Below are positions 45,001 to 51,000 of a stretch of 64,000 bases of DNA, one piece after another; position 1 is the first letter of the stretch; every line of letters starts with the position of its first letter. The stretch comes from Escherichia coli (GTDB lineage Bacteria; Pseudomonadota; Gammaproteobacteria; Enterobacterales; Enterobacteriaceae). The stretch is taken from NCBI RefSeq assembly GCF_003991155.1, contig NZ_CP031293.1. One strand, 5' to 3'. Position numbers: made by a program.

Positions 45001-48000
45001 GAATAAAAAATGCAGTAATCCTGTTTCAGAATTTGATGAGGCAAATGCCTTAAGGTTATGCGATGATCATTATAAGCTATGGAAGCGAAATAAAGAGAAT
45101 CGTCGGGTCAGGAATATTTGTCGTATAATTAGTAGATATGACAAAAGTCTGGACTGGGAGATATTTTATAGAGTAAGAGATGCTGCAAAAAATAAAACGG
45201 GAAAGAGAATTATTGAGGACGCAAAAATATTACATCAATGGCGTGCTTCAAAGCAAGTAAGAAAAAGTTTTCACAAGGGTGTGCTTCGGTCACGGGAATG
45301 GCTTAATACACAGGAGTTACTGAGCAGAAAACATATATCTGTTACAGGTGAACTATTTAAATTTTACATAAAAGATATTATCAGATTATATTGCTATAAG
45401 TTTCTCTACAGCAGAGAATATCTTAATGAAAACGCATACAAAAAACGATATCAGAGAGATATTCACCCCAGAAAAGTTAATGTTCCGATACTGCAACTTG
45501 AAGTTGCATGGATAAATAATAATTGCCGCTCAAGTGATTCAAGCACTGATATTATTATCCTTCCGAGGATGATAAGAAGAATGGTTGTATTTAATTATAC
45601 GAAGATAAATAAACAATTAGAGAAAGTGTTGGGGGGGATAGCACGAAAACAAACCTCAGAAAGGAATAAAGGCGGTCTCTATACCAGAATAAAAAAAGAA
45701 AGTGACTTTCTTTCTATGGATAGATTTATGGTGGAAATAGAAAATATCATAAGACCTGAAAGGTTTCCTACATCAATTTATCCAGTCTTTTCACATTCAT
45801 TTATTGAACGAGAGCTTCCGCTACTGAATCTTGCCCGATCACAGTATAAAAGAGCAATAAGTAAAAGAGTGGCGAATTCAATTTTTTATACTTTGCAAAA
45901 AACTAACGTGGCATTATGGCTATATCTTGAAATGTTTGCTCTGGTGGCATTCATTAAACTGTATACAGGAAAAGGTTTTGAATTCATAAAGAACATGTGT
46001 GTATTTATCGATTATGAGAAAGGGATAATAAAATCCACACATGAAGAACTGCTGGGTGAAATTAAGCGTAACATTCAAGTGAATTTGAAGGTGAATCCTG
46101 ATAATTTTCCAGAGTTAATAGACATATACAATTCATGCTTTAGTGAAAATATATTGTCATATGATATTCAGGATGGTAATTTTAAATGGCGCTCATGATG
46201 TAAAAATATTAATTTCACATTACATATTAATTATTCACAAAAAACATATAATTAATTTCAATGAGTTACATATAAAAATGTTGATGATTAGCCAGCTTAG
46301 TATGGTTATGCAATGTGATGCTTAACGCTTACAGATAATAACACATTCATATGAGCTATATATCATAATATTCAATAATCATGATATGCTAATCTGATTA
46401 TGGATAAAAATTACTGAATGACGCCATATTATGATTGGCAGTGTTTCCTGTATACGATGACTTATCTCTCCCGCATCATATGGGGGCACGTTTCTTAGGA
46501 AAAGTGACGGGGTTACAGAAGCCAATTACGATAGTTTGTTGTAGAGTTATCACGAGTTTTTGTTGTTCTGAAGACGGAATCAAAAAAATAATTCCAGAGT
46601 AAACCTGTCTGTTTTTTGACCAGTAAAGATCCATGCTGGCCGTGAAAAACTGAAATCAACACTCAGTCTGCATGGATGTCTGAAGATATTGAGAATGTCG
46701 GGAATGGTACTATATACGTATTATACAGACATATCTTCACTAAGTGTTATACACGCATTTTCATAAACAATTCTACAAGTGTTTTCATTAAGCATTGCTG
46801 TACACATTGTTTGATCTGATACACATCCAGTTTAGTAAATCTTTACGTTAGCTAAAATCAGTTTAAAGCTGCTACAAAACAATTTTTCTTGTTTAAGTAA
46901 TCAGGATGATATTCTATTTTTCTGAAGTTACGTTTAACCTTTTCTTAGTTTTTGTGTTTTTAGTCGTTAACCTGAGACAAGTGTCTTTATGTAAAAACGC
47001 AAATCCGGCTGAGATAACCTGGCGTGATTTACTGTGTGCTTACGATGATTTTGTTAAATGGTTTTATGGATGATTTTGTAACGATGAGATTGATGAGATG
47101 ATTAACTGGCCCTGGTGTTTTTTCTCAGCGCAAGACTCTTTTCAGGAAAAGCGTGATGATTGGTTCTGGTGTTTTGATTCAGATGAGGTTTACGTTATCG
47201 ATGGTTAACCGTTTTTATGGAGCGTAGTTAAAAGTAACGTTTTCAGTATAAGAAAATCGATTCTGATGTTGGTGGTTTTTGTTCTTGGGGCGGGGGTGTC
47301 TGTAAACAGGTTTTAATCGCGCTGTTCGGCTCTGTGATTGAGTTGTGTGGTTAAGCTGTAGGTGTGGTGTGATCTTACACAGCAATAGTGGACACGCGGC
47401 TAAGTGAGTAAACTCTCAGTCAGAGGTGACTCACATGACAAAAACAGTATCAACCAGTAAAAAACCCCGTAAACAGCATTCGCCTGAATTTCGCAGTGAA
47501 GCCCTGAAGCTTGCTGAACGCATCGGTGTTACTGCCGCAGCCCGTGAACTCAGCCTGTATGAATCACAGCTCTACAACTGGCGCAGTAAACAGCAAAATC
47601 AGCAGACGTCTTCTGAACGTGAACTGGAGATGTCTACCGAGATTGCACGTCTCAAACGCCAGCTGGCAGAACGGGATGAAGAGCTGGCTATCCTCCAAAA
47701 GGCCGCGACATACTTCGCGAAGCGCCTGAAATGAAGTATGTCTTTATTGAAAAACATCAGGCTGAGTTCAGCATCAAAGCAATGTGCCGCGTGCTCCGGG
47801 TGGCCCGCAGCGGCTGGTATACGTGGTGTCAGCGGCGGACAAGGATAAGCACGCGTCAGCAGTTCCGCCAACACTGCGACAGCGTTGTCCTCGCGGCTTT
47901 TACCCGGTCAAAACAGCGTTACGGTGCCCCACGCCTGACGGATGAACTGCGTGCTCAGGGTTACCCCTTTAACGTAAAAACCGTGGCGGCAAGCCTGCGC

Positions 48001-51000
48001 CGTCAGGGACTGAGGGCAAAGGCCTCCCGGAAGTTCAGCCCGGTCAGCTACCGCGCACACGGCCTGCCTGTGTCAGAAAATCTGTTGGAGCAGGATTTTT
48101 ACGCCAGTGGCCCGAACCAGAAGTGGGCAGGAGACATCACGTACTTACGTACAGATGAAGGCTGGCTGTATCTGGCAGTGGTCATTGACCTGTGGTCACG
48201 TGCCGTTATTGGCTGGTCAATGTCGCCACGCATGACGGCGCAACTGGCCTGCGATGCCCTGCAGATGGCGCTGTGGCGGCGTAAGAGGCCCCGGAACGTT
48301 ATCGTTCACACGGACCGTGGAGGCCAGTACTGTTCAGCAGATTATCAGGCGCAACTGAAGCGGCATAATCTGCGTGGAAGTATGAGCGCAAAAGGTTGCT
48401 GCTACGATAATGCCTGCGTGGAAAGCTTCTTTCATTCGCTGAAAGTGGAATGTATCCATGGAGAACACTTTATCAGCCGGGAAATAATGCGGGTAACGGT
48501 GTTTAATTATATCGAATGTGATTACAATCGGTGGCGGCGGCACAGTTGGTGTGGCGGCCTCAGTCCGGAACAATTTGAAAACAAGAACCTCGCTTAGGCC
48601 TGTGTCCATATTACGTGGGTAGGATCAGTGTTGCTGTTGATTTACAGCGCCAGAAAGCGTTCTGATTGCGTTTCTGACGTTTTGTTTGCGCGTTCTGTTG
48701 ATCCGTTTCCCTTCAGGCTTTGTAGTTTTTAAAAAACATTTATGCCGTTGTTGTGTGTTTTACTCTGCGTGTAGGTTTATTTTTTCTTCGTGGGGGATTC
48801 ATTCTGTTTTAATCAGGAGCCATTGGCGTTGCTCAATGGCGGGATGCCGTAAAGTTTTACCGCAGTGATTAATGATGTGAAGTCAATCCAAATCAACGGA
48901 GATCTCTCATCATGAATCAACCAATACACAATGCTTACTGGTTATCCCGTTTTGAAAGTATTCTCAACAGTGCCCTGGCGCAACACCGTGCCGTCTCGTT
49001 AATCCGGGTGGATTTACGTTTCCCTGAGTATATGCCTGTCACCATCATGGATCCCGATCCGGATTCAGCGGTGATTTCCCGTTTTTTCGCATCCCTGAAA
49101 GCCAAAATTCAGGCTTACCAGCGGAAAAAAAGATGGGCCAATCAGCGTGTGCATGCAACCAGCCTGCGTTATTTCTGGTGCCGGGAGTTCGGCAAGATGT
49201 ATGGCAGGAAACATTATCACGTGATATTACTGCTCAACAAAGATACCTGGTGCTCGCTCGGGGATTTCAGCGAACCGTCTTCGCTGGCGACGATGATCCA
49301 GGAGGCATGGTGCAGCGCCCTGCATCTTGAGCCCTGGCAAGGCGATGGCCTGGTCCATTTTTCCAGGTGGACGCCTTCCCGTAAACCGACATCGTCTGAT
49401 GCTCGCCCTTCTTCCGATGACACGCCTTTGTCGGGTGGATGTTCTGATACCAGGAAGGCTTCAGACAAAAAGCCAGGTGAAGCCGCTGTGCTCTGGATCA
49501 AGCGTGGTGATGTGGAAGCGCTGCAGAAAGCCCGGAACAGAGCCAGTTATCTCGTGAAATATGAGACGAAGCAGCATGACGGTTCCGGGCAACGTAATTA
49601 TGGTTGCAGTCGTGGGCCGGGGCGTCTACTGGATGGCAGGTGAACCCGGTAAAACAGCATCCGGTGCCTGAGCGTATACCACGGTCAGGACGTTGGCTGA
49701 CGCCCTTAGCTCGTTTTCTGATAATCGCCCTGAAGTCATGAAACGGTATTTTTATCTGCTTCCATTCTCATGTTCATATTTCCCCTTACACTTTCACTGT
49801 CTGTCATTGGAAGTACCGATTTATTTTGGTGCTGCTCACTTACTGCCATTCACGGAAGAGGATAGTGGTGAACCGTACGATCCTGACTGCTGGCGAGGGA
49901 AGGTTCAGAACTGGTATGAGGTTTAGTGCTGGAAGATGACTTTGAATCCCGGACTGAGCAGTGAGGGGGCAGTGGGAGGATGCTCTGGTGTAACAGGCCT
50001 GGATTGCAAAATACAAAACCGGTTGTACACTCGTAACGGGCAAAAGGATACGGGCAATAACACGTGGTACCCGGTGAGACAGGATCTTGTATCGCATTAC
50101 CGGGAATATTCTGACAGGTGAAATGTTCTGATAAGAATCATCCTGAGGGAGGATACAACGGATATGCACGTTATTAACAGCGGCATTCGTGATGTGAAAT
50201 TTGGTGAAAATGTGAAAGTCGTCATGCCAGTAAACCTCTATGAATGTGAACTGGGGGATGATGTTTTTATCGGTCCCTTTGTGGAAATACAGAAGGGATG
50301 CATCATTGGCAAGCGGAGCCGAATTCAGTCCCACAGTTTCATCTGTGAGAACGTCATTTTAGGTGATGGCTGTTTCATCGGTCATGGCGTAACTTTTGCT
50401 AATGATCTTTTTAAGTGTGGTGGTCCCGATGCCTCTGCAGAAAGCTGGATACGTATCGTATTAGGTAACACTGTAACAGTGGGTAGCGGAGCGACTATTT
50501 TAACAACAGAAATTTGCAGTGGAGCAGTGATTGGGGCTGGTAGTGTGGTTACAAAGCCCGTGCTGGTAAAAGGCGTGTATGCCGGTAATCCAGCCAGACT
50601 TTTGAGAACGCTTTAATTATTATATTTACAAATCGTAAGCCAGAATTGACTCCAGACCATTATGTGCCTTATTCACCATGAGTGAAATGCGGGATGAGCC
50701 TGCAAGTTAAGAGGATATCGGAAACCAGCAACCAGGGCAGTGAGAGCGCTGTCGGGGTCATTGATATCTCCGAAGGGAAGCCCTGGTATAAGGTGTTTGC
50801 ATAAAATTATTAAACAGGCTCATTTTTAGCGATCCTCATGAAATTCATCGTAACATCCTGAATATCTTATGGTGTTTCCTGTCATCTCCGGTATTTATTC
50901 CGTTCATGCAAATAACCTGATGAAACAGGGCAACGCCATAAAACCGGATAAGGACAACATGGATTAACGATAAAAATTGTGATCCTGTTTTCATTTTTCA

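Follow-up and report, generated by a model that had tools for sequence, protein, structure and literature searches.

On the evidence of its sequence, the element occupying positions 47370-48627 of the window, by which we mean the whole 64,000-nucleotide stretch of Escherichia coli DNA analysed (contig NZ_CP031293.1), is almost certainly a full-length, structurally competent IS3 (IS3 family) that was placed by ordinary transposition in a non-coding part of a CP4-like genomic island. The element is IS3 itself, more than a member of the IS3 family, and it is a genuine and ordinary copy of a kind already known. It is flanked by a duplication of the triplet GTG, and the corresponding unoccupied site, bearing a single GTG, is present in other E. 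coli genomes.

Results

Identity and termini of the element

The element is 1258 bp in length, as are the K-12 copies IS3B, IS3C, IS3D and IS3E that served as the reference set and from which the expected lengths of the IS3 repeats and target duplication were also taken; K-12 IS3A, which is missing its first 3 bp, was dropped as a reference. The first-pass annotation had called an intact IS3 copy at 47370-48627 and proposed alignment to the reference as a check. These bounds proved exact, and the alignment yielded identity at 1255/1258 positions (99.76%) with IS3B-IS3E and revealed neither truncation nor disruption of the reading frames. The description as intact is therefore upheld by the identity, the equal length and the completeness of both ends, yet the copy is not identical to the reference, as it differs by three substitutions that are absent from all five K-12 copies (IS3A-IS3E). 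These are a C>A change at IS position 10 (window 47379) in the left repeat, a synonymous A>G change at position 200 (window 47569) in orfA, and a non-synonymous C>T change at position 1125 (window 48494) in orfB, which converts alanine 255 of OrfB to valine (codon 48493-48495). Identical copies elsewhere are annotated by PGAP as 'IS3-like element IS3 family transposase, programmed frameshift', and IS3 matches of at least 99% are found in 4060 records of the E. coli collection.

Both ends of the element are complete, with 5'-TGATC at its start and GATCA-3' at its end. The left terminal inverted repeat (IRL; 47370..47408, plus strand) starts with 5'-TG and bears the variant A at position 10, as seen in both the IRL/IRR comparison and the K-12 alignment, and the right repeat (IRR; 48589..48627, minus strand) ends with CA-3' and is identical to that of K-12. 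Canonical IS3 has C at position 10 of both ends, and because A replaces C in the IRL, an ungapped comparison of the first 40 positions of the two repeats gives 27/40 matches here versus 28/40 in the K-12 copies. The ends thus have the form by which IS3 is recognized, imperfect inverted repeats of approximately 39-40 bp bounded by 5'-TG...CA-3'. An inverted-repeat search of 47200-48800 with a 9-nt exact seed returned no match, a limit of sensitivity that follows from the imperfection of IS3 repeats; direct comparison of the ends confirmed that the terminal inverted repeats are complete, as had been claimed.

Coding capacity and predicted frameshift

The element contains two overlapping reading frames on the plus strand. 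The first, orfA (47435..47734), encodes a 99-residue InsE-type DNA-binding protein of the HTH_Tnp_1 class (PF01527, E 5.2e-10) that is identical to K-12 InsE. The second, orfB (47731..48597), lies in the -1 phase relative to orfA with a 4-nt overlap and encodes a 288-residue InsF-type protein containing the DDE catalytic domain, with matches to rve (4.8e-28), rve_2 and HTH_21; the domain matches of the two proteins together are PF01527, PF13276, PF00665 and PF13333. The DD(35)E triad is formed by D135 (48133-48135), D195 (48313-48315) and E231 (48421-48423), with offsets D-60-D-36-E, and the A255V substitution, a conservative one, lies outside it.

A slippery tetranucleotide for programmed -1 ribosomal frameshifting, A_AAG, is present at 47698..47701 (plus strand; 0-frame codons CAA AAG), in a context, CCUCCA-AAAG-GCCGCGACAUACUUCGCGAAG, that matches the IS3 frameshift cassette used experimentally (PMC4066793). 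A stem-loop at 47707..47742 (plus strand), 5 nt past the slip site and spanning the orfA stop and the orfB ATG, is predicted with a free energy of -13.9 kcal/mol in a local 50-nt fold (z = -2.18; 4/200 shuffled sequences equally stable), and this hairpin would form the 5' stem of the frameshift-stimulating pseudoknot that has been published for IS3. The fold of the 111-nt frameshift region was not significant (z = -0.64). A scan of 47000-49000 against Rfam at E<=1 matched no family, including for the frameshift element, so that the RNA structure given here is based on a single-sequence fold and the literature.

A -1 shift at 47701 would produce the 387-residue fusion transposase OrfAB (47435..48597, plus strand), which matches the model NF033516 'IS3 family transposase' with 391.6 bits (cutoff 160) over profile positions 1-369 of 369. 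The joined CDS that PGAP annotates in an identical copy has the same extent and is labelled 'programmed frameshift'. The overlapping reading frames, the slip site, the hairpin and the cassette match all agree with the OrfA/OrfB frameshift architecture attributed to this element earlier, the frameshifting being predicted.

Resemblance to K-12 IS3 (IS3B-IS3E; insE/insF) extends to the A_AAG site with its downstream stem, the catalytic triad and the 3-bp length of the target duplication; the three substitutions are the difference. With IS911, IS2 and IS150, members of the IS3 family that move by a copy-out-paste-in route, the element shares a -1 frameshift between orfA and orfB, an OrfAB protein with both an HTH and a DDE (rve) domain, short target duplications and ends of the TG...CA type (PMC10379815, PMC3299598, PMC12095673). 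These are nevertheless distinct elements, and their sequences are unlike that of the IS3 in the window.

From these features we infer the pathway by which the copy arrived, each step of which is established for the IS3 family. Translation of orfA would slip back one nucleotide at A_AAG, aided by the downstream structure, to yield the OrfAB DDE transposase, which would bind the TG...CA inverted repeats. IS3 would then be copied out as a circle, with a promoter at the circle junction, and pasted into the target at staggered cuts 3 bp apart, and repair of these cuts would generate the GTG duplication. Indirect support for such a pathway comes from the presence of this variant at two sites, both with a duplication of their own (see Discussion).

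Target-site duplication and unoccupied alleles

The element is flanked directly by GTG at 47367..47369 and at 48628..48630, as the first-pass annotation had noted in proposing a simple transposition event rather than a recombination junction. Since a 3-bp match between flanks has a 1/64 probability of arising by chance, the flanks were joined without the IS, leaving one GTG, and this reconstructed empty site was searched for in other E. coli. An 800-bp reconstruction was matched in one piece at 100% in many genomes, and a 3-kb reconstruction was matched in one piece at 99.9% in Eco889, in the orthologous island. The unoccupied allele of DSM 30083, the first to be identified, was rejected as an orthologous empty site because the island that holds it, near cadC, is paralogous and occupies a different locus; the search for an orthologous allele led to Eco889. 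Base by base, the Eco889 junction reads ...GGTGTGGTG|TTGCTG..., with flanks contiguous over approximately 6.2 kb to the left and 10.1 kb to the right at approximately 98.8%, and with the island gene order and chromosomal locus of the window genome. None of the unoccupied alleles examined had zero or two GTG triplets, or extra or missing flanking bases. Because an uninterrupted allele with a single GTG exists, the duplication is not a product of chance and the event is a simple insertion, in agreement with the original interpretation. Among the K-12 controls, IS3B (ATC/ATC) and IS3E (GTC/GTC) also have 3-bp duplications, and the triplets flanking IS3C and IS3D differ.

Genomic setting and distribution

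The insertion lies on the selC side of yicL/setC, in a non-coding stretch; the site follows a hypothetical gene at a distance of 1170 bp and precedes, by 284 bp, a YagK/YfjJ ('inovirus Gp2 family') gene that runs from 48912 to 49643. ARAGORN found no tRNA within the window, which places the selC end of the island beyond it. Outward-facing promoter boxes have been described for the right end of IS3 (PMC12095673), and motif location identified candidate boxes (TTTAAT-15-TACAAT; TTGGTG...CAATTT) at 48502..48576 on the plus strand, directed toward the YagK/YfjJ gene. A generic sigma-70 and terminator scan found no excess over shuffled sequences and nothing at the IS ends, leaving the published boxes unflagged; the right end may act as a promoter at this locus.

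IS3 is inserted at this site in exactly 21/5426 complete E. coli genomes, and the insertion is lineage-specific, the 21 carriers having both the site and the sequence in common. In all 21 the insertion is accompanied by a second, island-borne tna operon. The genome-wide count of IS3 copies that had been suggested earlier was run on the carrier chromosomes, 13 of which (of the 21) gave no IS3 match other than this copy; the window likewise holds no other IS3 sequence.

Discussion

The history of the insertion could be read in other ways. Were the flanking triplets coincidental, the element would mark the junction of two different island segments, and several observations might seem to allow this: the 1/64 frequency of chance matches, a left flank that is itself rich in GTG (GGTGTGGTG), the unequal identity of the DSM 30083 island (98.0% left versus 93.4% right), and the K-12 copies IS3C and IS3D, whose lack of matching triplets indicates that recombinant IS3 copies exist. 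In many genomes, however, the flanks are contiguous around exactly one GTG, with 100% identity across 800 bp, and at the shared locus of Eco889 they are contiguous over many kilobases; these alleles refute that reading and leave it a negligible probability. A possible, though doubtful, variant of simple insertion is that IS3 entered the island in another host, and that the occupied island, or a segment of it, was later acquired by recombination or horizontal transfer. The 3/1258 differences from the common E. coli IS3 are more than decay in situ within one clone would be expected to give, most carrier chromosomes hold no other IS3 as a possible donor, and CP4-like modules with the same empty site exist at different loci, such as that near cadC in DSM 30083. 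A donor borne on a plasmid that was later lost would also explain the missing chromosomal source, however, and the common site and sequence of the 21 carriers fit either history and are not decisive. Import, if it occurred, would change the place of the event and not the identity of the element.

Simple insertion of a competent IS3 also has to be weighed against the suggestion that the intact appearance is deceptive and that IRL C10A, OrfB A255V or both have reduced the copy to a relic unable to move. C10A removes a base common to both canonical ends, the copy is the sole chromosomal match in 13 of the carriers, and identity among complete genomes steps from 100.0% to 99.8% with no intermediate in which a single one of these changes stands alone. 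Persistence as a single copy fits low activity, although IS3 as a rule transposes rarely; A255V is the conservative replacement outside the triad noted above. At a second site, unrelated to that in the island and situated amid IS66/IS481-type debris beside an AraC-family gene, a copy identical at 1258/1258 positions is flanked by its own CAG/CAG duplication, and the empty allele of this site is present in 4 genomes. Because of this identical copy, its duplication and the existing empty allele, the variant with all three changes has transposed at least once, which shows that the three substitutions are compatible with transposition and makes inactivation very improbable. The window copy itself may still be active. 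It is unlikely, if slightly less so, that the three-substitution variant constitutes a distinct active sub-lineage whose candidate outward boxes, co-oriented with the YagK/YfjJ gene, rewire expression of that gene in the 21-genome lineage.

The preferred reading, ordinary transposition of a competent IS3, qualifies the earlier proposal that the copy is a potential substrate for further rearrangement in the island. Rearrangement mediated by transposition is still possible, but homologous recombination between IS3 copies is limited, because 13/21 carrier chromosomes hold no second IS3 and the window holds none; the copy is accordingly a poorer substrate for IS-by-IS rearrangement than was implied. 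IS3 ranks with the best-characterised insertion sequences of bacteria; the present copy behaves as expected, and its importance beyond bookkeeping is small. Within those bounds, the insertion provides a clean clonal marker, and its matched target-site duplication and empty allele show that, although the island is mosaic elsewhere, no recombination scar lies at this point.

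Structure and coding capacity of the IS3 element

The element occupies exactly 47370-48627, as given in the first-pass annotation, its ends (TGATCTTACACAGC at the 5' end and GTGGGTAGGATCA at the 3' end) and the flanking GTG triplets being legible in the sequence. Megablast matched it in 4684 of 5426 complete E. coli genomes, at ≥99% in 4060 records, under the annotation 'IS3-like element IS3 family transposase'; it is the already-known IS3, with ordinary behaviour. For reference, the element was aligned to all five IS3 copies annotated in K-12 MG1655. Its length, 1258 bp, is that of K-12 IS3B-E; the first 3 bp (TGA) are absent from the left end of IS3A, which was therefore not taken as a length reference. 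The same three positions differ from all five K-12 copies: a C to A change in the left inverted repeat at IS position 10 (window 47379), a synonymous A to G change in orfA at position 200 (47569), and a C to T change at position 1125 (48494) that produces OrfB A255V. The first-pass annotation had called the element an intact IS3, and alignment confirms this for all sequence-level features, with the qualification that it is a three-substitution variant and not the reference sequence.

The termini are TG...CA and the inverted repeats, though imperfect, are complete at both ends, as had been claimed. Left and right repeats match at 27 of 40 positions, compared with 28 of 40 in K-12 IS3, because C10A alters a position at which both canonical ends have C. 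On the plus strand, orfA runs from an ATG at 47435 to a stop at 47734 (99 aa; HTH_Tnp_1 domain), and is overlapped in the -1 phase by orfB (47731-48597, plus strand, 288 aa; HTH_21, rve and rve_2 domains). An A_AAG slip site at 47698-47701 (plus strand), placed by the 0-frame codons CAA AAG, is followed 5 nt later by a plus-strand hairpin (47707-47742; -13.9 kcal/mol, z = -2.18) that spans the orfA stop and the orfB ATG. The CCUCCA-AAAG-GCCGCGACAUACUUCGCGAAG context is shared with the IS3 frameshift cassette studied experimentally in PMC4066793.

The conceptual -1 fusion, OrfAB, is 387 aa long and covers the entire NCBIfam profile NF033516 'IS3 family transposase' (391.6 bits; cutoff, 160). 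In the PGAP annotation, an identical copy has a joined CDS, marked as a programmed frameshift, of the same extent as the conceptual OrfAB. The catalytic residues D135, D195 and E231 are all present, with 35 residues separating D195 from E231. No feature required of the IS3 family is missing from the window copy. The overlapping reading frames, slip site, hairpin and full-profile match bear out the OrfA/OrfB frameshift architecture noted earlier. At the level of sequence, all defining features of IS3 were tested and found, the transposition pathway itself lying outside this set.

Origin of the insertion

GTG triplets abut the element at its 5' end (47367-47369) and its 3' end (48628-48630). Among the K-12 copies, IS3B (ATC/ATC) and IS3E (GTC/GTC) retain 3-bp duplications, whereas the triplets flanking IS3C (ATC/ACC) and IS3D (CAC/AAA) do not match, and a matched pair is therefore informative. 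Since a 3-bp match by itself has a chance probability of 1/64, we tested reconstructed empty sites. A reconstruction of 400 bp from each flank joined through a single GTG gave an uninterrupted 100% match in many genomes, including DSM 30083, S88 and APEC O1. The DSM 30083 site belongs to a related CP4-like island at a different locus, near cadC, and we therefore searched a 3-kb reconstruction extending into the neighbouring acyltransferase gene. This matched E. coli strain Eco889 in one piece at 99.9%, with the gene order and chromosomal locus of the window, beside yicL/nlpA/yicS. Against Eco889, the left flank aligns over 6.2 kb and the right over 10.1 kb at ~98.8%, the two overlapping by only GTG and one ambiguous T; the Eco889 junction reads ...GGTGTGGTG followed by TTGCTG.... 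These contiguous single-GTG alleles rule out a recombination junction at the element, and the earlier reading of the identical GTGs as a mark of simple transposition stands. The occupied and empty alleles together bear the signature of one transposition event with a staggered cut of 3 bp.

The element sits in non-coding DNA. A hypothetical gene (44976-46199) ends 1170 bp before it, and a co-oriented YagK/YfjJ 'inovirus Gp2 family' gene (48912-49643) starts 284 bp after it; in the unoccupied alleles of DSM 30083 and Eco889 the site falls within no annotated feature. The right end carries the box pairs TTTAAT-15-TACAAT and TTGGTG...CAATTT (48502-48576), discussed in PMC12095673 as candidate outward-directed promoters of the IS3 right end, with a pausing site after them. 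A generic promoter scan did not flag these boxes. Given the published candidates, read-out transcription toward the YagK/YfjJ gene is conceivable.

Other features of the island and window

A 7.6-kb block (49763-57344), present here and in Eco889, is lacking in the related CP4-like island of DSM 30083; it has genes for an acyltransferase, a pseudouridine kinase and glycosidase (psuK/psuG-like), a NupC-family transporter, a sugar kinase and a second YagK/YfjJ protein. YagK/YfjJ-type sequence bounds the block, an arrangement suggesting that recombination brought two island modules together.

Between nepI and yicS, a block of ~17.5 kb (~15391-32400) carries a 9.97-kb inverse autotransporter gene (iatC) and genes for the HilA-like regulator EilA, SipD/SipB-like type III translocators and a SycD-like chaperone, and resembles the eip/eilA locus of enteroaggregative E. 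coli. Eco889 lacks this block, and nepI and yicS are adjacent there. In the annotation of the matching record, a frameshifted RelE/ParE-family toxin pseudogene stands beside an intact HTH antitoxin-like gene between yicN and nepI (~13112-13726).

The island also carries a second tryptophanase operon (tnaB, tnaA; tnaC just outside), which occupies 61399-64000, runs past the window end and is flanked by IS66, IS110, melA and bgl gene fragments. Two tna loci per chromosome occur in the same 21 genomes as the IS3 insertion; identity of the island copy reaches 100% only within this carrier set, and no other complete E. coli genome has a tna operon more than 97.5% identical to it.

Distribution and mobility of the variant

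A 300-bp left-junction probe was at least 80% covered in exactly 21 of the 5426 genomes, the same 21 that hold a 100%-identical element. The insertion lies at the ~79.37 kb coordinate in most of these carriers, and we therefore regard it as a single insertion inherited within one lineage; the window is 99.995% identical to AR Bank #0349 over 36.6 kb. The element is the sole chromosomal IS3 match in 13 of the 21 carriers, and no further IS3 fragments were found within the 64-kb window. The proposal that it is a substrate for further rearrangement is thus narrowed, the scope for IS-by-IS homologous recombination being limited.

The exact OrfB(V255) protein is recorded in many assemblies. Contigs L009, L010, L013 and L014 carry it at the present site, and L011, L012 and L015 in a different context, beside an AraC-family gene and remnants of IS66/IS481 type; a fragment of a group II intron maturase lies near this second site (around 2640-3897 in L011 and L012). 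In L011 and L012 all 1258 positions agree with the window copy (100% identity), A10 of the left repeat included, and a CAG triplet flanks the element on each side. A reconstructed empty allele of the second site is found in one piece in 4 complete genomes (99.3-99.6%). The element bearing all three substitutions has therefore transposed at least once, which argues against C10A or A255V having inactivated it.
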